From IMG/VR virus record IMGVR_UViG_2639762822_000001: a DNA stretch of 44,565 bases. One strand, written 5' to 3'. How positions within the stretch are numbered: the first letter of the stretch is position 1; each line of letters begins with the position of its first letter. Below the pieces are notes generated by a model. That model was given only the letters and a program-made list of their open reading frames with translations, was not told the origin of the DNA and ran no database searches. Positions 7,975 through 15,411 of the stretch are shown piece after piece. The DNA is from a virus. Taxonomy: Duplodnaviria > Heunggongvirae > Uroviricota > Caudoviricetes. The position numbers were made by a program, and so were the translations under genes.

Positions 7975-7994
7975 ATATGTAAGCACTTACTTAT
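7975..7994 (-). promoter_or_regulatory. Motif A before portal gene
   Basis: ATATGTAAGCACTTACTTAT, abutting the RBS. Confidence 0.6.
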
Positions 7995-9247
7995 CTTGAT
8001 CCGCCAAGAATAACACGATTTTTAACCGGATACCTACGATGAACTGGATAACCTAATGCATCCGCGCTGTGCTCAATGCCACCACTCTTATCCATATCCC
8101 GTGAGCCAGGTTTATAAATTACTTTTTCAAGCGAATCGATAAGGTGTTTGCATTTCGGGTCGATATAAAGCCGCGTTTCGCCAGATGCGCTTAACAGCAT
8201 ACGGTTTACGGCATTCACACGATCCGCTATTGGCGGGTGCTTCTTCGGAAAATCAACCCGTAGAAAACCCTTTTCCTTAAAAATGTCTACGTCTGACTCA
8301 CCACGAGCGTGCTGACGATACGCGCCGGCAGGGTCGGGGAAAATGGTCACATGTGATTTCCATCGCCAGTAACGGCGCTCCAGCTCATCACACACTTCTG
8401 CCGTGTTGGATGAGAAAAGCACCAACTCGTCAACCGCCCACAACTCGCCATTTGGCTGTGGCTGGAGAATGACAGAAGACATCGGATCGATGTTGAAGTC
8501 CTGACCAACCCAGATCGGCAGCTTTGGATTGAACTGCAACGGCTTCACATGCACGCTTCGGTCGAAAGGATAGTAAACACGACCGGACATGTTTTCGAAG
8601 CTGGCCAGGTACTCCTGAGCGAACGACTTAGGGTCCATATCATTCTTCGCGGCTTCGATTTCAGCGGTCGGAACAAACGGAGAGTCAGCAGTAACAAACT
8701 GCCAGCTCTTCCACTGGCCTTTACGCTGTAGCTCTTTGTTCTGGCCGATCGTCCACAGCTTATGGAACTCAGAGAAGCCTTTCGGCGTACCGATGATCAG
8801 CGCCCCGCCCCGGGTGGATGACAACGTCGGTCGAAGAACCTTATACCAGGTGTCCGGCTTCATATCCTGAAACTCGTCGAGTACCACGAAGTGAAGCGCA
8901 ACACCACGGAGCGTATCGGGCTTATCGGCGCCTTTGAGCGCGATCTCAGAGCCGTTCTTCAGCACGATTGTCATCGTGGTATCGTTTTTCTTACGAATCC
9001 ATTTCCGGGGTAAAACTTCCTGCAGGTCATCCCACAAAATCTGGCGTGCCATCTGATAAGTCGGCGCGACATACCAGACACGTTGTTTTTTCTCTTTGGC
9101 CGCGGCTCGGATAATGGTGGAAATCGACAACCGGGATTTACCCCAGCGTCGACCCGCACATACCACCTTGAATCGATGTGGCGACTGGAAGACTTTCATC
9201 TGTCCAGAATGCAGCTGTACGAGACTCAGAGACGACGGGATGCTCAT
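7991..9247 (-). CDS. terL: Terminase large subunit
   Basis: Walker A 'AGRRWGKS', Walker B 'VVLDE', 'GTPKG', RNase H-like 'GQDFN' and 'HSADALGY'. Confidence 0.95.
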   Translation of the reverse strand: MSIPSSLSLVQLHSGQMKVFQSPHRFKVVCAGRRWGKSRLSISTIIRAAAKEKKQRVWYVAPTYQMARQILWDDLQEVLPRKWIRKKNDTTMTIVLKNGSEIALKGADKPDTLRGVALHFVVLDEFQDMKPDTWYKVLRPTLSSTRGGALIIGTPKGFSEFHKLWTIGQNKELQRKGQWKSWQFVTADSPFVPTAEIEAAKNDMDPKSFAQEYLASFENMSGRVYYPFDRSVHVKPLQFNPKLPIWVGQDFNIDPMSSVILQPQPNGELWAVDELVLFSSNTAEVCDELERRYWRWKSHVTIFPDPAGAYRQHARGESDVDIFKEKGFLRVDFPKKHPPIADRVNAVNRMLLSASGETRLYIDPKCKHLIDSLEKVIYKPGSRDMDKSGGIEHSADALGYPVHRRYPVKNRVILGGSR

Positions 9248-9249
9248 AA

Positions 9250-9891
9250 TCAAACACTCCCATCACTTTCATCGTCCGACGCGTCAGAATCGATTTCAGC
9301 TTCGCTCAGCGCTTCCTCTTCCAGCGACTCAAGCAGTTCATCATCGATCAACTCAGGCTCATCGTCTTCCTTACGCAGCTGCGCAACCTGTGAAGGTGTA
9401 AGTTCGCCAAACACCAGGTTCGGAATTTCATCTTCCTCATTTTCGGCGCGATCCATGCCGAGCGCTTTCGAAGAGATTTCGAAGCACTTGGCCAGTGTGC
9501 CGCTGGCTCGCTGGAGACTTTTAAGGTCATCTTCTATGGCTGCGAGAGGTCTGCCATCCTTTTTGGCAGTGGCAACTTCGTGCATGACCATGCGCCCGAG
9601 TGCAAACGCCCAATCGTCGTAGCGAGTACGCCGCTCTTCAATTTTGTCTGCTCTCGCTTTGGCACGAAGCTCCGCATCGGATTTGAGCGATTCGCGAACC
9701 ATCTTTCCAACAGAGTCGGCGCCCTTCTCTAATCCACGCTTTTTGAAATGTCTGGAGAGCGTTTCACGACGAATGCCGTACTCTTCCTCCAGTTTTGAGA
9801 GCGTATACTCGCCTGAAGTCCACTTCGCTTCGGCTTCTGCCCACTCAGCTGGCGTCAGGCGAGTTTTGGTCTCGTCTTTTTCTACCGTCAT
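9250..9891 (-). CDS. Terminase small subunit (N-terminal HTH)
   Basis: 'YTLSKLEEEYGIRRETLSRHFKK' HTH, acidic tail, stop abuts the terL start. Confidence 0.75.
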   Translation of the reverse strand: MTVEKDETKTRLTPAEWAEAEAKWTSGEYTLSKLEEEYGIRRETLSRHFKKRGLEKGADSVGKMVRESLKSDAELRAKARADKIEERRTRYDDWAFALGRMVMHEVATAKKDGRPLAAIEDDLKSLQRASGTLAKCFEISSKALGMDRAENEEDEIPNLVFGELTPSQVAQLRKEDDEPELIDDELLESLEEEALSEAEIDSDASDDESDGSV

Positions 9892-9932
9892 AGATCCCTC
9901 TAAAACACGCAGAGCGCATCCTTGCGCCCTCT

Positions 9933-9970
9933 AAACAATTTGTTTAAATCTCTGTCTAACCAATTTGTTT
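9933..9970. promoter_or_regulatory. Two motif-B operators before terS
   Basis: AAACAATTTGTTT (9933) and AACCAATTTGTTT (9958). Confidence 0.7.
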
Positions 9971-10005
9971 TCTGGGTGGTTTATCAAAACTTGAGAGTTG
10001 CAGAA

Positions 10006-10080
10006 CCTGCTTCCGTATATAATTAATAAGTGACTTAATATTTATTTATACGGAAGCAGGCTCCACATCTGACTCCCAGA
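10006..10080. repeat. Long inverted-repeat module 1
   Basis: CCTGCTTCCGTATA (10006-19) / TATACGGAAGCAGG (10047-60), 27-bp AT-rich spacer, then GACTCCCAGA at 10071-80. Confidence 0.9.
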
Positions 10081-10085
10081 CCTGC

Positions 10086-10352
10086 TTACATCACCAGTAA
10101 CTTGGCCCTTGCTCGACCCAATGCAGTCAGCCCCAGCGTGCGGCGGTGATAGCCTGAATCCCCGCGCTGCCGACACATTCCCTTCTCCACCAGCCCCTTT
10201 TTCACCAGTGCGCGGATAGAGAACTGCATACTCTGCTTGGTCGTTTTGTACGGCAGGACTTCAAGCAGCTCGTCCAGATCAAGCAGATTCCCTCGCTCGT
10301 GCCCTAAATTGATGGTTTTAATGATGTCTTTCTGTTTGTCGGTCAAAGTCAT
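10086..10352 (-). CDS. Small winged-helix DNA-binding protein
   Basis: 'LTDKQKDII..LDELLEVL..SMQFSIRALVKKGLVEK..LGLTALG' wHTH pattern; AAGGA RBS. Confidence 0.7.
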   Translation of the reverse strand: MTLTDKQKDIIKTINLGHERGNLLDLDELLEVLPYKTTKQSMQFSIRALVKKGLVEKGMCRQRGDSGYHRRTLGLTALGRARAKLLVM

Positions 10353-10361
10353 GGCAAATCC

Positions 10362-11252
10362 TTATGCCGGTAAAGCAATTTCAAGTGGTTTATCCAAAGG
10401 CTGTTTGTCGAACGCCAGCAGCGGCAGAGTTTCTGGCAGCGAGCGACCAAAATCCGGGTTGCGGTACACCCCATATAACGGTGAGGTGAAGCTCAGGTTA
10501 TGAATATCTTTGAGTAGCTTCACGATGCTGGCTTCATCCACCAGGCTGTCGGCAATGTCCTGAATGGTAGTGCCTCGGTTACGCCCGGCTTTGGCCAGTG
10601 AACTGTTCTTGTGGTAGTCGGCAACCAGATCTCGCAGCGCACGACGACGGCGAGATTCGCTCATGGCGAACAGCTCTTTGACGATCGCTTCGTTGTCGCC
10701 AGGGTCAGAACGAAAATGACGCTGGAAGACGCGCAGCGCACTCTCATAGCTCTTCGGACGCTCCGGACGGATGAACTGGAACCCTGCTTTCATGGCGAAC
10801 GGGTTGTATTTGCTCATCGACGACTGGATCTCGATGATTGGCCTGTCATGCATCCTGCTAACCAGGTTAATCATTCGATAGGAGACGCCGACACCGCGAT
10901 ACTGCGTATCCACTACAGAACGGCTGATCACTGCAAAGTTATTGTTCACGTACCGGCCCCAATACTGGTTGGCCACGGTGGTATTGGTCGTTGGCTTCAA
11001 CTTAGGAAACATGCGATGGCGAGGTGCCAGTAGAAGTTTTGGATAGGCCATGACCACGACGCCCACCAGCCGGCCGTCCAGCTCGCAGCGATAATACGTA
11101 GGCGCGAACGGTTTACCGTCCGTCTTGTAGTGCAGCGATTTCAGCGCGTGCCAGTCTTCAACAGTGCCTTTGGATACGGTCATTCGTTCCATAAAGTCCA
11201 GATGCCGCGGGAACTCTTCCGGACGGTAGCGTTTGATGATGATGTCTGCCAT
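10362..11252 (-). CDS. GNAT-fold acetyltransferase, Mom-like
   Basis: 'LKSLHY', 'RLVGVVVMAYP', acetyl-CoA-binding motif 'ISRSVVDTQYRGVGVS'. Confidence 0.7.
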   Translation of the reverse strand: MADIIIKRYRPEEFPRHLDFMERMTVSKGTVEDWHALKSLHYKTDGKPFAPTYYRCELDGRLVGVVVMAYPKLLLAPRHRMFPKLKPTTNTTVANQYWGRYVNNNFAVISRSVVDTQYRGVGVSYRMINLVSRMHDRPIIEIQSSMSKYNPFAMKAGFQFIRPERPKSYESALRVFQRHFRSDPGDNEAIVKELFAMSESRRRRALRDLVADYHKNSSLAKAGRNRGTTIQDIADSLVDEASIVKLLKDIHNLSFTSPLYGVYRNPDFGRSLPETLPLLAFDKQPLDKPLEIALPA

Positions 11253-11257
11253 GTCGA

Positions 11258-11512
11258 TCACCTGCGCTCGATATTGGCATTGATGAAATCCAGGCGAAGA
11301 GATTCCATCGCTCCCACCATGACATACGGGCGCCCGCCGTTATGCCAGCAATCAAGAACACTGCCGTCGTTGTTGATCATCAGCAGCGCCAGGCTCTGGC
11401 TTTTGCCTTCTCTGGCGTACTGAAGTGCTTCTTCCAGCAGGCGGATGACTTCAACGTTATTGTTGTCAGCCTCTTTCGATGGCTTCAGCTCTACGATCTT
11501 CAAATCAGGCAT
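11258..11512 (-). CDS. Hypothetical protein
   Basis: 84 aa, overlaps both neighbours (translational coupling). Confidence 0.7.
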   Translation of the reverse strand: MPDLKIVELKPSKEADNNNVEVIRLLEEALQYAREGKSQSLALLMINNDGSVLDCWHNGGRPYVMVGAMESLRLDFINANIERR

Positions 11513-12143
11513 ATTCCACCTTCACGCGTTCTTTGTAGTGCTTGGTGATCTGCATATCCGGCCGCAGTGCGTTCTTCAGATCTTCGTGTGTCGTCGCCAC
11601 CATTACCGTCGCGCCAACCTTACGAGCGGCACGCTGGAGGTTCGACGCAACAACCTGAGCGGTTACACGGTCGAGAACGGCGCCAAATTCGTCGGCCGCC
11701 CACACTTTCGCGCCGGACTCGATTAGCTTGGCGATTTTGAGACGGTATTTCTGGCCGTCAGACATTTCGGATGGCTTGCGCACAAAGAGATAGGCGTCAT
11801 TCAATCCGGCCATAGACAACAGCCCCAGCGCTTCGCTGGTGGTTTTGCCCAGCTGGTCGATAACGTTAACCTCATTGTCGAAAGCAAAATCATCGATTGA
11901 GGCCACAGAAAGACCTTCATCCTTCATCTGGCGTTGCAGCTCGCGCAGCACAACGGATTTGCCTGAACCGGATTGTCCGGTGATGTACACAACATCACCC
12001 TGCTTCACTTCCAGCTCCAGATTGTCGTAAAGCGTCCACTCTTTTTCGTCCAGACCAAGACCGAACGATTCGGCAATTTCCAGCGTTCGCGTGGTTTTGT
12101 TCACGCGGGTCTGGAACGACACGTTGATGGTGTACTTACTCAT
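11505..12143 (-). CDS. Stand-alone ABC-family ATPase (no membrane partner)
   Basis: Walker A 'GQSGSGKS', signature 'MSDGQ', Walker B 'WAADE', H-loop 'TTH'. Confidence 0.9.
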   Translation of the reverse strand: MSKYTINVSFQTRVNKTTRTLEIAESFGLGLDEKEWTLYDNLELEVKQGDVVYITGQSGSGKSVVLRELQRQMKDEGLSVASIDDFAFDNEVNVIDQLGKTTSEALGLLSMAGLNDAYLFVRKPSEMSDGQKYRLKIAKLIESGAKVWAADEFGAVLDRVTAQVVASNLQRAARKVGATVMVATTHEDLKNALRPDMQITKHYKERVKVEYA

Positions 12144-12808
12144 GCAGCCAGCTCCCCGGATGACACTTTCTCCGCATACGCCACGAAAGCGTTCACCCCG
12201 CGCTCTCCCGTGATTTCTTCCATGTGGGCGAGCAAATCCCCAACCACAATGGCAGAGCCAGCAGGAAGCGTTTTAAAACCCAATACGTCGATGACACGGA
12301 CTTCTTCAGCGGCCACTTCGCGACTGATCTCGGTGTGCTCTTCTTTCTGGCGTTCCGTCTCTTCGCCCAGATCGAGCACCAGAGAGCCGGTTTCCATCTC
12401 TTCGGTCATGCTGCCGACAAGCACATTCAGTTCACGCTCTTCAAAACCGAAGACCTCGACGTCGCCCAGCACCAGGGATTCCAGTTCCTGCTGCAATTTG
12501 ATGGCGTCGTAATCGATACTGGCAAGGCGGTTGTCTTCCAGACGCTTCGCCTTCACCTCTTCTTCATTCAGATCGTCGCGAACAATGACCGGCACACGCT
12601 CCAGACCAGCCAGAAGTGCCGCCTCGCGACGACCATGACCAGTAATGATGACGCCGTTCTTGTCGATCGTGATCGGCTGGTCAAAACCGCGCTTTATGAT
12701 GGCGGCAGCCAGATCGCGGATCTGCTGTTCATCATGTTTTTTGGCGTTCATCTCATACGGGATGAGTTCAGCCGGGTTTCGATAGACGATTTCAAAGTTC
12801 TTGGTCAT
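12140..12808 (-). CDS. ParB/Srx N-terminal domain protein
   Basis: 'LIPYEMNAKKH', 'GFDQPI', 'IITGHGRREAA'; start coupled to the upstream stop (TAATG). Confidence 0.85.
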   Translation of the reverse strand: MTKNFEIVYRNPAELIPYEMNAKKHDEQQIRDLAAAIIKRGFDQPITIDKNGVIITGHGRREAALLAGLERVPVIVRDDLNEEEVKAKRLEDNRLASIDYDAIKLQQELESLVLGDVEVFGFEERELNVLVGSMTEEMETGSLVLDLGEETERQKEEHTEISREVAAEEVRVIDVLGFKTLPAGSAIVVGDLLAHMEEITGERGVNAFVAYAEKVSSGELAA

Positions 12809-13488
12809 TACATACGCTCCTTGTAGTAGTCGACCAGCCACACCAGGGCTTCCCCGGCGTTCTCCATTTCGTTACCGGTGTTGATCCCCTGCTCTTTGAT
12901 GATGGTTTTGATGGTGTCGGCGACGCGATCTGACGCATCAAATGTCACTTTGAAGCGCATCGTCTGGTGTTCTGCGCCAACGCGCTCCGTTTTCTCGCGG
13001 CGATCGTCGTCAGCTGGCTCATCATCGCCGCGGGAAAGCGCTTCCAGCGCTTCGAGATCAATGGCAGAGGCTTTGGCAAGGGTGGCCGCCATTTCATCGT
13101 CATAGGGGGCAATATCGGAAAGCCGGTAGTCGATTTCAGACTGGATTTCTTCGATCAGTCGCTGCAAAGCGACCTGATCGTCTTCGCCGTAACGTTCGTT
13201 ATCGACAAGTGACATCTGCTTGGCCACCAGGTCGTTGATTTTGCCAACCGAGATGACAGGAACAGTCGAAATTCCCTGCTCTATCGCAGCCCGCCAGCGA
13301 TGTTCGCCACCGAGGATCTGGAAAGTGCCACCGTCCAGCTCACGGGCCAAAATTGGCTTAAAAAAGCCCAGCTTCTCGATAGAACCTTTCAGTTTTTCGA
13401 AGTTTTGCGCCCCCACCGAGTTGGTGTTCCAGGGATTCGGACACAGGTTCGCAACTTCAACCTGCAAAATCGTAATTTTCACATCCAT
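12808..13488 (-). CDS. ParB/Srx N-terminal domain protein (second paralogue)
   Basis: 'PNPWNTN', 'GFFKPI', 'ILGGEHRWRAA'. Start uncertain (13483-13506). Confidence 0.85.
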   Translation of the reverse strand: MDVKITILQVEVANLCPNPWNTNSVGAQNFEKLKGSIEKLGFFKPILARELDGGTFQILGGEHRWRAAIEQGISTVPVISVGKINDLVAKQMSLVDNERYGEDDQVALQRLIEEIQSEIDYRLSDIAPYDDEMAATLAKASAIDLEALEALSRGDDEPADDDRREKTERVGAEHQTMRFKVTFDASDRVADTIKTIIKEQGINTGNEMENAGEALVWLVDYYKERM

Positions 13489-13505
13489 TTTCTTGATACA
13501 ATCCA

Positions 13506-13531
13506 TTATATAAGTACTTACTTATTATAAT
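13506..13531. promoter_or_regulatory. Motif A in the divergent ParB-operon/helicase gap
   Basis: TTATATAAGTACTTACTTAT with a TATAAT on each strand. Confidence 0.7.
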
Positions 13532-13570: not shown

Positions 13571-15130
13571 ATGACAGTTCGTATTGTATCGAATGCCGTC
13601 AATGCACTTATTTCGGGTGCAGATGACAATGTAAAAAGGCTCGTTCAGGAAATGTTGAGCTACGAGGTGGAGGCTGGCGACTGGAAAGGCACCAGCACGA
13701 TGTTCAACTGGAGCAAGAATGCGTTCCCGGCCGGCTTTGCCAAGCCAGTGGCAGCCAACCTTCTCAAAGCGGGCATCAAATGCGTCCACGTTCGTAAGGA
13801 TAAAGCGCCGCCGCTTGGCAAGCCTAATCCAGTCGTTAATCCGTTTCCGTACAACCCTGACTATGCCTATCAAGATCAGACTGTCGAAACGCTCGTTCGC
13901 GAGGGGATGATGATCGCGCAAATTGCGACAGGGGGCGGGAAGTCTAACGTAGCGTGTAAAGCAGCAGCACGTATTGGGCGAATGACGTTGTTTTTAACCA
14001 CGCGTTCTGTTTTGATGTTCCAGATGGCTGAAAATTTCCAAAAATCTATCGATTATCGAGCTGAAAACGGAGAACCGTGGCTTAAAGGCCAGAAGGTGGG
14101 CGTAATAGGATCTGGTCAGTCTCAGGTTTCACGCCATATCAACGTCGCAACGGTGCAAACCCTGGCCAGCTTCCTTGAAGAACCGCCACGCGATGCTTCA
14201 CCGGAAAAGAGGAATCACCACCTTAGACGTCAGGGGCTTGTTAAGCGATTCCTATCCAGCGTTTCCCTCCTGATTCTGGAAGAAGCCCACGAATCATCAG
14301 GCTCCAATTTCTACGATATAGCGCGGTTATGCATTAATGCTGATTATCGATTGGCTCTGACAGCTACACCGTTTATGAAGGATTCGACGGAAGCGAACAT
14401 GCGTCTCATGGCAGTAGCCGGGCGAATTGAGATCAAAGTCACCGAAAAATACTTGATCGACCGAGGTATTTTAGCAAGGCCCTACTTTCTTTATCATAAG
14501 ATCTCGTACACTCCGGATGAGGTACGAATCCGGGCCGAACTTGCTTCAAAACATCTCAATTTCAGGGTCGGAATGAGCACTGCGTATCAGAAAGCCTATC
14601 AATTAGGTATTGTCTACAATCTGGCTCGCAACGAAGCCATTGTGCGTGAGGCGCTCATGTACAAAAGCCACGGCCTGAACTGTATGACACTGGTGCGTCT
14701 GAAAAGGCATGGACAGATCCTGATGGAAATGATGAGAGAGAGCGGCCTTAACGTCGACTTTATCTATGGGGAGTCAAATCAGTCTACCCGGCAAGCCAAA
14801 CTGAGCAGCTTAGCGGCAGGCAAGATAGACGTTTTGATTGGCTCAACCATACTGGATGTAGGCGTCGATGTTCCTAGCGTCGGCGCGGTAATTCTGGGTG
14901 GTGGAGGAAAGGCCGAAGTTGAAATGCGTCAGCGCGTAGGACGTGGCCTTCGAGCCAAGAAAAATCAGGCGAATGTGTGTTTTGTTACCGACTTCATCGA
15001 TGTAAGCAACAAGTATCTCATGTCGCACTCATATGAACGGAAAAACATCATCGACACTACGCCTGGGTTTGCCGAGGGCGTATTGCCAGTGGGTAGCACC
15101 TTCGATTTTACTGTTTTAAATAGAGAGTAA
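13571..15130 (+). CDS. SF2 DNA helicase (UvsW/D10-like)
   Basis: Motif I 'ATGGGKS', motif II variant 'LEEAH', motif III 'TAT', 'LDVGVDVP', motif VI 'QRVGRGLR'. Confidence 0.9.
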   Translation: MTVRIVSNAVNALISGADDNVKRLVQEMLSYEVEAGDWKGTSTMFNWSKNAFPAGFAKPVAANLLKAGIKCVHVRKDKAPPLGKPNPVVNPFPYNPDYAYQDQTVETLVREGMMIAQIATGGGKSNVACKAAARIGRMTLFLTTRSVLMFQMAENFQKSIDYRAENGEPWLKGQKVGVIGSGQSQVSRHINVATVQTLASFLEEPPRDASPEKRNHHLRRQGLVKRFLSSVSLLILEEAHESSGSNFYDIARLCINADYRLALTATPFMKDSTEANMRLMAVAGRIEIKVTEKYLIDRGILARPYFLYHKISYTPDEVRIRAELASKHLNFRVGMSTAYQKAYQLGIVYNLARNEAIVREALMYKSHGLNCMTLVRLKRHGQILMEMMRESGLNVDFIYGESNQSTRQAKLSSLAAGKIDVLIGSTILDVGVDVPSVGAVILGGGGKAEVEMRQRVGRGLRAKKNQANVCFVTDFIDVSNKYLMSHSYERKNIIDTTPGFAEGVLPVGSTFDFTVLNRE

Positions 15131-15132
15131 TA

Positions 15133-15411
15133 ATGAGCGATAAACGCGCTATACATTGCCAGGTGCAACTGACCGAGAAGGCCAACGACAAGCTGGAAAA
15201 CTTTCAAAATCGTCTTCGTGAACGCAACATTAAGTTGTCAAAGGCAGACATCATCAATCTGGTGCTGGCCAACATGACAGTTGCCGATTTTGATAAGGCA
15301 GCGACATCTCTGGAGGCGTCAGCGAAAGCTCGTGAAAAAGTCATGAAAATTTACGAGAACTCGGGGATGACCAAAGAAGATTTGGCCGATATTCTAAAAC
15401 GTCTCGACTGA
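15133..15411 (+). CDS. Putative ribbon-helix-helix DNA-binding protein
   Basis: Alternating strand 'IHCQVQL', then two helices 'EKANDKLENF..' and 'SKADIINLVL'. Confidence 0.5.
   Translation: MSDKRAIHCQVQLTEKANDKLENFQNRLRERNIKLSKADIINLVLANMTVADFDKAATSLEASAKAREKVMKIYENSGMTKEDLADILKRLD

Follow-up and report, generated by a model that had tools for sequence, protein, structure and literature searches.

A ParB, ABC ATPase and GNAT operon beside the terminase genes of an SSU5-type phage-plasmid: the split-gene form of a predicted DNA acylation system

The DNA described here is IMG/VR virus record IMGVR_UViG_2639762822_000001, a stretch of 44,565 nucleotides (nt) from a member of the Caudoviricetes, which is referred to as the window and whose numbering is used for all positions. 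At 10086-13506 it contains an operon of six co-oriented and mostly overlapping open reading frames (ORFs), and all six of the genes named in a preliminary description of the window are indeed present on the minus strand (Table 1). They encode two proteins with a ParB/Srx fold (ParB1 and ParB2), an ABC ATPase, a small protein of 84 amino acids (aa), a GNAT protein, and a second small protein of 88 aa. As set out below, the ABC and GNAT genes are best read as the two halves of a single enzyme of the COG2401 type, and acylation of phage DNA is the likeliest, though tentative, proposal for what the operon does.

In the 3.8-kb operon region, the window shows 99.3% identity to two plasmids of Salmonella enterica and 92% to the Salmonella phage SSU5, and because of these matches we assign the window to the SSU5/pHCM2-type phage-plasmids of Salmonella (SSU5-type in the following). 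Approximately 780 plasmids match the same region. They come from Klebsiella, Escherichia, Enterobacter, Yersinia, Salmonella and Citrobacter, and nearly all of them are non-mobilizable.

The six genes are tightly packed. ParB1 and ParB2 share one nucleotide (TAATG, at 12808), the stop codon of ParB2 lies over the start codon of the ABC gene (ATGA, a 4-nt overlap at 12140-12143), and the ABC and 84-aa genes overlap by 8 nt (11505-11512), so that three of the four overlapping junctions described previously stand. The fourth, at 11258, exists only if the GNAT gene starts with GTG (GTGA, 11258-11261). The ATG at 11252 is the likelier start, because it is preceded by a Shine-Dalgarno sequence (AGGTGA) and the nearest homologue (P0001) begins at the same place, and with this start the overlap is replaced by a 5-nt spacer. 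The GNAT and 88-aa genes are 9 nt apart. All six proteins belong to phage families in PHROGs (phrogs 723, 930, 293, 796, 886 and 900, respectively), while Pfam recognises ParB_N twice and ABC_tran once, and gives only a sub-threshold match for the GNAT (expectation value, E, of 0.07). The short motifs quoted in the preliminary description (GEHR and GHGR in the ParB proteins; 'HY', 'LVGV' and 'SRSVVDTQYRGVGV' in the GNAT) can all be found in the translations.

Table 1. Genes and sequence features of the operon and its surroundings
Feature	Position	Strand	Description
ParB1	12808-13506	-	232 aa; orphan ParB/Srx-fold protein; ParB_N at residues 16-103, acidic linker, conserved C-terminal domain
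ParB2	12140-12808	-	222 aa; orphan ParB-fold protein; motifs PYE.NAK.H, GHGR, DN
ABC ATPase	11505-12143	-	212 aa, soluble; predicted ATPase half of split COG2401-type ABC-GNAT enzyme
84-aa protein	11258-11512	-	phrog_796; accessory cargo between ABC and GNAT genes
GNAT	10362-11261 (GTG start) or 10362-11252 (ATG start)	-	296-299 aa; predicted catalytic half of split enzyme
88-aa protein (p88)	10086-10352	-	phrog_900; probable winged-helix DNA-binding protein
-10 element TATAAT	13529-13524	-	probable promoter; RNA 5' end at ~13519, inferred from an RNA-library contig of a relative
Hairpin	9992-10078	-	87 nt, 24-nt arms, AT-rich loop, followed by GUUUUG; probable operon terminator
Two operator-like palindromes (AAACAATTTGTTT type)	9933-9946, 9957-9970		inverted-repeat search; ahead of terS
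Smaller terminator-like stem with U-run	9930-9911	-	~20 nt ahead of the terS start codon
SF2 (superfamily 2) helicase	13571-15130	+	519 aa; divergent from ParB1; NCBIfam matches to dnd_restrict, XPB and UvrB helicase cores
terS-like (small terminase subunit)	9250-9891	-	phrog_867; downstream neighbour, outside operon
terL (large terminase subunit)	7991-9253	-	downstream neighbour, outside operon; terS/terL assigned by Pfam Terminase_6N, phrog_10250, phrog_2 and phrog_867

The ABC ATPase is recognised by Pfam (ABC_tran, 5e-13) and by phrog_293 (1e-58, over positions 117-350 of a 1058-residue profile). Its motifs comprise a Walker A (GQSGSGKS), a signature (SDGQ), a Walker B (DE), a D-loop and an H-loop (TTH), all of which are kept as far as the archaeal fused proteins. 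In a set of 30 sequences with fused forms among them, GQSGSGKS, SDGQ, DE and TTH do not vary. The preliminary description had pointed to a complete ABC ATPase lacking a permease or binding partner, and this agrees with the present data: the neighbours of the operon are the SF2 helicase on one side and terS/terL on the other, and no gene for a transmembrane permease or a substrate-binding protein was found in or near the operon in any of 21 loci (see below). PHROG and GenBank annotate the gene as 'ABC transporter' or 'OsmV'. We reject a transport function, since a permease is lacking and the fusion partner of the orthologues is a GNAT, not transmembrane domains.

The window ABC protein has 39-49% identity to the N-terminal halves of fused ABC-GNAT proteins, which is far above the value for any transporter subunit. 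An exhaustive profile search for homologues of the GNAT gave 355 representatives, and about half of the 150 that were listed are proteins of ~480 aa with an N-terminal ABC_tran domain. In phmmer comparisons, the window GNAT matches residues ~220-400 of such proteins (E 1e-8 to 1e-18); it is 22-32% identical to their GNAT domain and has the same nearly invariant residues. Because the ABC protein is so much closer to the fused N-terminal halves than to transporter subunits, and because every catalytic residue is kept, we consider the ABC and GNAT genes to be two halves of one COG2401-type enzyme. In GenBank the fused architecture carries the label 'MK0520, ABC-type ATPase fused to a predicted acetyltransferase domain', for example in phage Cyrano.

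The window enzyme resembles the COG2401/'MK0520' type in its orthologous ABC part, with all motifs, and in its GNAT part, as well as in its association with ParB and the terminase large subunit, the fused forms being found with these or with viral replication genes. It differs in that the COG2401-type enzyme is one polypeptide, whereas that of the window is made from two genes with a cargo slot between them, and in that the window adds two ParB paralogues, a conserved 88-aa protein resembling a winged helix-turn-helix (wHTH) protein, and a divergent SF2 helicase. What is known of the COG2401 type is itself a predicted activity.

Several fused proteins carry further domains. These include a ParB_N-ABC-GNAT protein (P0067), a family-B DNA polymerase fused to ABC-GNAT (PolB-ABC-GNAT, P0099), an ABC-GNAT protein with Gins51_C at its N-terminus (P0051), and one with a C-terminal TFIIB repeat (P0036). 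In another (P0041), the ABC domain is interrupted by an intein with a LAGLIDADG domain. P0041, P0036 and P0051 look like archaeal or archaeal-virus variants. All partners in the ABC-GNAT fusions are DNA-bound machines.

The conservation of the operon was examined by scanning one genome per species, which gave 21 loci, followed by an iterated search with the window proteins. The loci come from Acinetobacter, Massilia, Paraburkholderia, Magnetospirillum, Sphingomonas, Novosphingobium, Xenorhabdus, Morganella and Photobacterium, and from several metagenome-assembled genomes. All 20 complete loci (alpha-, beta- and gamma-proteobacterial, plus other assemblies) have the same arrangement, in which the helicase gene diverges from the series ParB1, ParB2, ABC, variable slot, GNAT and p88, which is followed by terS and terL, and this holds at GNAT identities that fall to ~35%. 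Such agreement is more than chance. The terminase genes lie downstream in each of the 19 loci that extend that far, and the helicase is divergent from ParB1 in each of the 20 that extend far enough on the other side. The non-coding gap between the 88-aa gene and terS is from 125 to 1128 nt long. A 6.5-kb metagenome contig has the same gene order. A viral-contig search with a close alignment returned only near-identical contigs of the SSU5 type, which are uninformative about more distant relatives.

Outside of this set, the ABC-GNAT gene occurs in two other settings. In an archaeal genome (L114), there is an overlap between an ABC-GNAT fusion gene and a Terminase_6N gene, at the 3' end of the latter. 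The PolB-ABC-GNAT protein mentioned above (P0099; 1260 aa, L111:9001-12783) is encoded in a 73-kb viral contig, within a replication module that also has Prim-Pol, RecA and a 5'-3' exonuclease, and which is found in at least 24 contigs.

The structure of the GNAT protein was modelled with AlphaFold. A single-sequence prediction reached a pLDDT (predicted local distance difference test) of only 40.7, so that an alignment was needed; with 104 sequences the model had a pLDDT of 94.4 and a pTM (predicted template modelling score) of 0.88. The GNAT fold is clear, as over 150 chains reach Z >= 8 and the best of them has a Z of 11.7, and it is extended by a helical insertion of ~85 residues (about 172-257) ahead of the last strands. 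Seven residues are nearly invariant in the family (H44, Y45, R81, R114, R122, G125 and E144). The classical pyrophosphate loop for coenzyme A (CoA), R-x-x-G-x-G/A/S, is retained, as indicated by a profile match to CoA-dependent GNATs.

The preliminary description called this protein Mom-like and suggested a Foldseek comparison. That comparison bears out the GNAT fold, and the Mom protein of phage Mu is the first match in the PDB (E 1.2e-4). A specific placement with Mom does not follow, since NAT10, agmatine and dopamine N-acetyltransferases, TmcA and bacterial protein acetyltransferases come next, within a factor of five (E 1.4e-4 to 3.4e-4 for NAT10 and TmcA). Other comparisons are similar in outcome. 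By VIA-align, Mom is sixth, with a Z of 10.8, and its 148 aligned residues are the longest alignment among the top rows; among the AlphaFold clusters, the first matches outside of the protein's own family are DUF4338 GNATs, TmcA and Mom. A sequence search of the PDB with the GNAT gave only noise (AlkD, E 1.4), and a search with the family profile matched only the motif A region of ordinary GNATs. Within the 104 family members, 53-56 match the Pfam families Acetyltransf_1/7, 44 match Acetyltransf_10, and one matches Mom (E 0.003); the window GNAT itself has no match to Pfam Mom (PF25680) at E <= 0.1. The label Mom-like was therefore too strong.

For a direct comparison, an alignment of the Mom family was built from Mu Mom and compared with the GNAT family by hhalign. 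The broad GNAT alignment gave a probability of 40% (E 2.9e-4), and a narrow alignment of 14 sequences gave an insignificant E of 0.16. The confident part places H44-Y45 of the GNAT on H58-Y59 of Mom, and the 'LVGV' strand on the 'LVGV' of Mom. The catalytic residues of Mom are R111, S124, D149 and R151. An alignment made by hand on strand beta4 superposes R114 on R111 of Mom, and S127 (A, G or S in the family) on S124, whereas hhalign takes another register in this region, and no firm counterparts of S124, D149 and R151 emerged. In Mom, the substitutions H58A and Y59A cripple activity (Silva et al. 2026, PMC13219725).

The window GNAT and Mu Mom (PF25680; PDB 8bv8) thus share the GNAT fold, a phage origin, an additional helical insertion towards the end of the fold, and a His-Tyr pair that precedes the 'LVGV' strand by 18 residues (H44/Y45 in the former, H58/Y59 in the latter). 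Two differences are set against these similarities. Mom does not have the CoA pyrophosphate loop, which is kept by the window GNAT, and it works alone with a charged tRNA, whereas the window GNAT has an ABC ATPase partner. The donor used by Mom is Gly-tRNA(Gly), from which glycine, rather than an acyl group of acyl-CoA, is transferred to N6 of adenine in double-stranded DNA (Silva et al. 2026, PMC13219725). By these comparisons we regard the window GNAT as a separate family and not as a member of Mom, although the two may have an ancestor or a substrate-side feature in common. Acyl-CoA appears to be a more likely donor than charged tRNA, because of the retained loop and the ABC partner.

Both ParB/Srx domains claimed previously are confirmed by Pfam ParB_N and by their motifs. 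ParB1 (ParB_N, 2e-13; phrog_723, 2e-84) contains GGEHR, of which GG.HR is invariant in 18 orthologues; the invariant residues of the protein are N27, N29, G66, G67, H69, R70, D102 and N103. ParB2 (ParB_N, 3e-7; phrog_930, 3e-113) contains GHGR, which is likewise invariant in 18 orthologues. In addition, ParB2 matches the N-terminal part of phrog_498, which is annotated as 'DNA methyltransferase' (7e-32). It would accordingly be the type of ParB that is fused to the N-terminus of phage DNA methyltransferases, and the match to this ParB part puts it in the class of the 'ParB-terminase locus'. Loci of this class with DNA-modifying enzymes have been described, and Iyer, Zhang and Aravind tie them to modification during packaging (PMC4738411).

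A second precedent is found in the thymine dioxygenases. O'Toole et al. 2026 described phage ParB-like proteins that have a nucleotide-binding and a C-terminal domain, and no DNA-binding domain, and that are required by a subclass of these dioxygenases on double-stranded DNA (PMC13229309). The window is similar to these systems (5mYOX176 with ParB176, PMC13229309) and to the ParB-methyltransferase fusions (PMC4738411) in that an orphan ParB is located beside, or fused to, an enzyme that modifies DNA after replication; as in the 5mYOX/ParB type, the window ParBs have an N-terminal nucleotide-binding and a C-terminal domain with no recognisable helix-turn-helix (HTH). The differences are that in the window an ABC-GNAT takes the place of the dioxygenase or methyltransferase as partner, that there are two ParB paralogues instead of one, and that activation is in this case predicted.

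Similarity of the two proteins to the ParB of ParABS partition systems is confined to the ParB_N (ParB/Srx) domain. No HTH domain was detected by Pfam in ParB1 or ParB2, a profile search that could miss a divergent HTH; the CTP-binding motif GERRxR is absent, its place being taken by GGEHR in ParB1 and GHGRR in ParB2; and there is no ParA gene beside them in the operon. For genome-wide statements on partition we used the nearest complete record (G001), where the only two ParB_N matches are the counterparts of ParB1 and ParB2. That record has a single small ParA gene with an overlapping gene for a 119-aa partner, ~35 kb from the operon, an arrangement that is customary for partition by small ParA proteins. 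This locus (L116:650-1674) encodes a 221-aa small ParA of the MipZ/AAA_31 type, and the 119-aa product, which has no Pfam family, is presumably its centromere-binding partner. From its gene content, this separate small-ParA locus would be the one that handles partition. In view of its existence we reject a role as partition ParB, as in the annotation 'Spo0J', and the present data argue against the view of a survey in which the two ParB copies of Acinetobacter elements were taken as partition genes (PMC7969092).

The two small proteins differ in their conservation. The 84-aa gene occurs only in close relatives of the SSU5 type, is absent from phage Cyrano and from the Xenorhabdus loci, and elsewhere is replaced by unrelated genes; the protein has no family in Pfam or the Atlas. 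In Xenorhabdus and in one other locus (L003) the position is empty, and the ABC and GNAT genes are adjacent or overlapping. Because the ABC-GNAT junction is a variable slot, the functional core is most simply taken as five genes, with the 84-aa gene as cargo, and not as a part of the machine as was previously implied. The slot is a hot spot for small accessory genes within an otherwise fixed operon, and may hold a thioredoxin-like gene (Acinetobacter, betaproteobacterial and Massilia relatives; L089:8540-8962, L090:8607-8873 and L091:8604-8930), a Phage_gp49_66 protein (Photobacterium, L108:8652-9002), or an unrelated 183-aa family (Klebsiella-type relatives, L002:5431-5982). A second variable slot is found between the ParB1 and ParB2 genes.

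The 88-aa gene, on the other hand, directly follows the GNAT gene in all 21 loci reaching that far, with gaps of -26 to +16 nt except in L092 (-187, where the start is over-called) and L095 (+530). The earlier description listed a wHTH protein at this position; the gene is present, and the winged-helix fold is only probable. The protein has no Pfam match, and its neighbours by language model include clusters of MarR_2, HTH_45, HTH_IclR and Penicillinase_R (0.91), which we treat as a lead only. We consider it a probable winged-helix DNA-binding protein.

The limits of the operon were examined with Logan contigs from four RNA libraries, which derive from relatives of ~93% identity, and from which expression level, strand and cell state are not readable. 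One such contig covers 10069-13452 in one piece. At the upstream end, a contig from a library of the small-RNA type ends at 13519 beside adapter letters, 5 nt downstream of the TATAAT at 13524-13529. At the downstream end, the 88-aa gene is followed by a non-coding gap of 194 nt, the main feature of which is a hairpin with a predicted folding energy of -43.6 kcal/mol (z = -7.7). In three studies contigs end at 10047-10069, and separate ones start ~20 nt beyond 9978, ahead of terS; one metatranscriptome contig spans the hairpin, but comes from a run (X15) that may contain DNA. The operon is probably its own transcription unit ending at the hairpin, with the reservation that contigs cannot prove transcript ends.

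The preliminary description had the operon end just upstream of terS and feed directly into the terminase. On the first point, the operon and terS do not abut, given the gap with its hairpin and two operator-like palindromes, and the second is true by position only: the operon probably ends at the strong hairpin before terS and so does not run into the terminase genes, which have operator-like palindromes of their own, and contigs stop at the hairpin in three studies. Judged by their form, the palindromes (9933-9970) may be a separate control point for the packaging operon, and together with the smaller stem (9911-9970) they could be an attenuator or a leader of the antitermination type. In GenBank, the linear sequences of phages SSU5 and Cyrano alike stop at window position 10024, which lies within the loop of the hairpin. 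Because of these record ends, the hairpin may also be part of a cos/pac packaging site.

These comparisons establish which genes the operon contains, their folds and motifs, the relationship of the ABC and GNAT genes as split halves, the deep conservation of the core by terS/terL and the separate partition locus, and they make a transcription unit of its own probable. That a GNAT coupled to an ABC ATPase acylates a DNA base was predicted in 2013 (Iyer, Zhang, Burroughs & Aravind, NAR 41:7635), as restated in section 3.4.7 of PMC7824862, and the literature statements in the preliminary description, on ParB-terminase modification loci and on a proposed association of GNAT and ABC ATPase, match PMC4738411 and PMC7824862. 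It had also stated that experimental characterisation is lacking, and our literature searches found none for the ABC-GNAT family or for the SSU5-type operon. The operon is the split-gene form of this predicted and still uncharacterised kind of system; as such the finding is real and conserved, and is not a new discovery. New here are the placement of the GNAT outside of the Mom family with a probable CoA donor, the His-Tyr pair common to Mom, the five-gene core with its cargo slot, the separate partition locus, the independent archaeal linkage to a terminase, and the probable boundaries of the operon.

The function that we put forward, tentatively and with somewhat less than even confidence, is an ATP-driven and probably acyl-CoA-dependent acylation of phage DNA by the ABC and GNAT proteins, with ParB1 and ParB2 (and perhaps the wHTH protein and the helicase) as loading or activating partners. 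We infer the DNA substrate, the acyl-CoA donor, the role of the ParB proteins, the timing and the biological benefit. In such a mechanism, the ParB-fold proteins would serve in DNA loading or activation, perhaps as nucleotide-switched clamps; the experimental precedent is the activation of thymine dioxygenases by phage ParB proteins on double-stranded DNA. The ABC dimer would spend ATP on gripping or opening the DNA, and the GNAT would place an acyl group, probably acetyl from acyl-CoA, on the exocyclic amine of a base. The reaction would occur on replicated phage DNA, ahead of packaging, and virion DNA would be marked or shielded as a result. Protection against restriction or CRISPR and hand-over of the DNA to the terminase, both suggested in the preliminary description, would be hypothetical extensions of this scheme.

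Several observations speak for DNA acylation: the fusions tie the enzyme to DNA machinery, the linkage to packaging recurs independently in the archaeal genome (L114), and the nearest solved folds of the modelled GNAT include the nucleic-acid-modifying enzymes Mom, NAT10 and TmcA. The split-gene relationship, the kinship of ParB2 with methyltransferase-fused ParBs, the alignment of H44-Y45 with the Mom pair, the retained CoA loop, the separate partition locus and the published prediction of 2013 count on the same side. Other points weigh against it. The modification of DNA in SSU5-type virions is itself a prediction from genes. Comparisons of folds and profiles do not separate acceptors that are DNA, RNA, protein or small molecules, as Mom, NAT10/TmcA, the agmatine and dopamine enzymes and the protein acetyltransferases are tied. 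N6-acyl groups on adenine have been calculated to be unstable (Silva et al., PMC13219725), and there are therefore fewer plausible products. Contact of the ParB proteins with the ABC-GNAT enzyme is suggested by one fused family and by gene order, and a clamp role for ParB1 and ParB2 is not assured, since GG.HR and GHGR are unlike the GERRxR of CTP-dependent partition ParBs and seem closer to Srx- or nuclease-type branches. Finally, the 21 bacterial loci represent one phage lineage in which terL is common to all, so that most of their shared gene order is inherited; evidence from outside this lineage comes only from the archaeal TerL linkage and from the fusions.

A more specific form of the DNA acylation proposal is rather unlikely as it stands. 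In this form, the ParB-fold proteins would make up a heterodimeric clamp that loads an N-acyltransferase, driven by ATP and dependent on acyl-CoA, onto replicated DNA near the packaging site. The outcome would be a DNA base modification unseen in any virus, which by analogy with TmcA/NAT10 could for instance be N4-acetyl-deoxycytidine. This mark would then be present in the virions of hundreds of clinical Enterobacteriaceae phage-plasmids and of related archaeal viruses. If acylation of DNA were true, the enzyme would be the first DNA base acyltransferase that depends on acyl-CoA and ATP, and would represent a new chemical class of phage DNA hypermodification, as well as a second example of ParB-fold proteins that activate DNA-modifying enzymes. 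Because the module is located on ~780 sequenced plasmids, a DNA mark that has gone unrecognised could have consequences for restriction barriers, for the transfer of phage-plasmids (some with resistance genes), and for base-calling in long-read sequencing. That the family extends to archaeal viruses and to replication modules points to a viral function that is old and general, and the operon is a well-defined and experimentally tractable candidate.

Of the other explanations, the one that survives best, though we consider it unlikely, is that the ABC-GNAT enzyme acetylates a DNA-bound protein, such as terS, portal, polymerase, or a nucleoid or defence protein of the host, and that the ParB and wHTH proteins place it on DNA. 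Characterised GNATs mostly act on proteins or small amines, the CoA motif is kept, and the top fold matches include NatA/Naa10, Ard1, RimI and HP0935, with Z values of 10-11. The fusions with PolB, GINS, TFIIB and ParB fit tethering to a protein equally well as tethering to DNA. However, no feature of a protein substrate is identifiable, an ATPase partner is unusual for protein acetyltransferases and is the hallmark of the nucleic-acid acetyltransferases TmcA and NAT10, and the closest relatives of ParB2 are fused to DNA methyltransferases.

The operon could also be centred on its ParB proteins, and serve in a second partition system or in recognition of the packaging site or genome ends. ParB near the hairpin or cos/pac site would here recruit the terminase, while the ABC-GNAT enzyme would have a regulatory part or use nucleotides or small molecules as substrates, and no mark would be left on DNA. 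The invariable position beside terS/terL and a structured non-coding region, and the ends of the SSU5 and Cyrano records in the hairpin loop, agree with such a role, as does the treatment of the two Acinetobacter-group copies in the survey cited above (PMC7969092), and ParB/Srx-fold proteins can act as NTPases or nucleases (PMC10853773). We nevertheless regard it as decidedly improbable: the operon has no ParA partner while a dedicated small ParA and partner gene are found elsewhere, the catalytic-looking residues and CoA loop of the GNAT are kept across bacteria and archaea, and the ABC-GNAT enzyme also occurs without ParB, beside polymerase or terminase genes.

Acylation of RNA is very unlikely. 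The enzyme would in this case be an analogue of TmcA and NAT10, that is, an ATP-dependent cytidine acetyltransferase of tRNA or rRNA, or else a tRNA-directed GNAT that alters or blocks translation in the lytic cycle. TmcA and NAT10 (Kre33), the N4-acetylcytidine synthases of tRNA and rRNA, follow the same logic, in which an NTPase is paired with a GNAT that uses acetyl-CoA on a nucleic-acid base, and they are among the best Foldseek matches, also in AFDB. Their alignments, however, have a root-mean-square deviation of ~15 Å and do not rise above those of ordinary GNATs. In these enzymes the ATPase is a RecD-like helicase within the same polypeptide and the substrate is RNA, whereas the ATPase of the window is separate and of the ABC type. 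Pfam detected no DUF1726, RecD-like helicase or tRNA-binding tail in the window proteins, so that only the GNAT part corresponds to TmcA/NAT10, by fold, and the fusion partners and neighbours are all proteins that handle DNA.

Equally improbable is a conflict system for superinfection exclusion or anti-defence, which would modify or disable competitor DNA or the nucleic acids of host defence instead of protecting the virion DNA of the phage itself. In its favour, a slot that gathers unrelated small accessory genes is common in conflict loci, and in three studies the full length of the operon is covered by RNA-library contigs of cultures that bear the plasmid, so that some expression outside of the burst is possible. 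Against it, the module is carried throughout the lineage as a core set of genes and not as variable cargo, and its place is in the packaging region; the contigs are silent on expression level and cell state. The remainder of the likelihood belongs to none of these five explanations.

Two observations concern the neighbouring genes. The helicase region of the window (13571-15411) consists of the SF2 helicase gene followed by a 92-aa gene, and the helicase may be a further functional partner of the operon module. In two of the related loci, the terL ORFs are ~750-840 aa long (L098:11000-13516 and L104:10938-13187), compared with 420 aa in the window. This length points to an insert in the terminase gene (an intein or homing element) or to a fusion.

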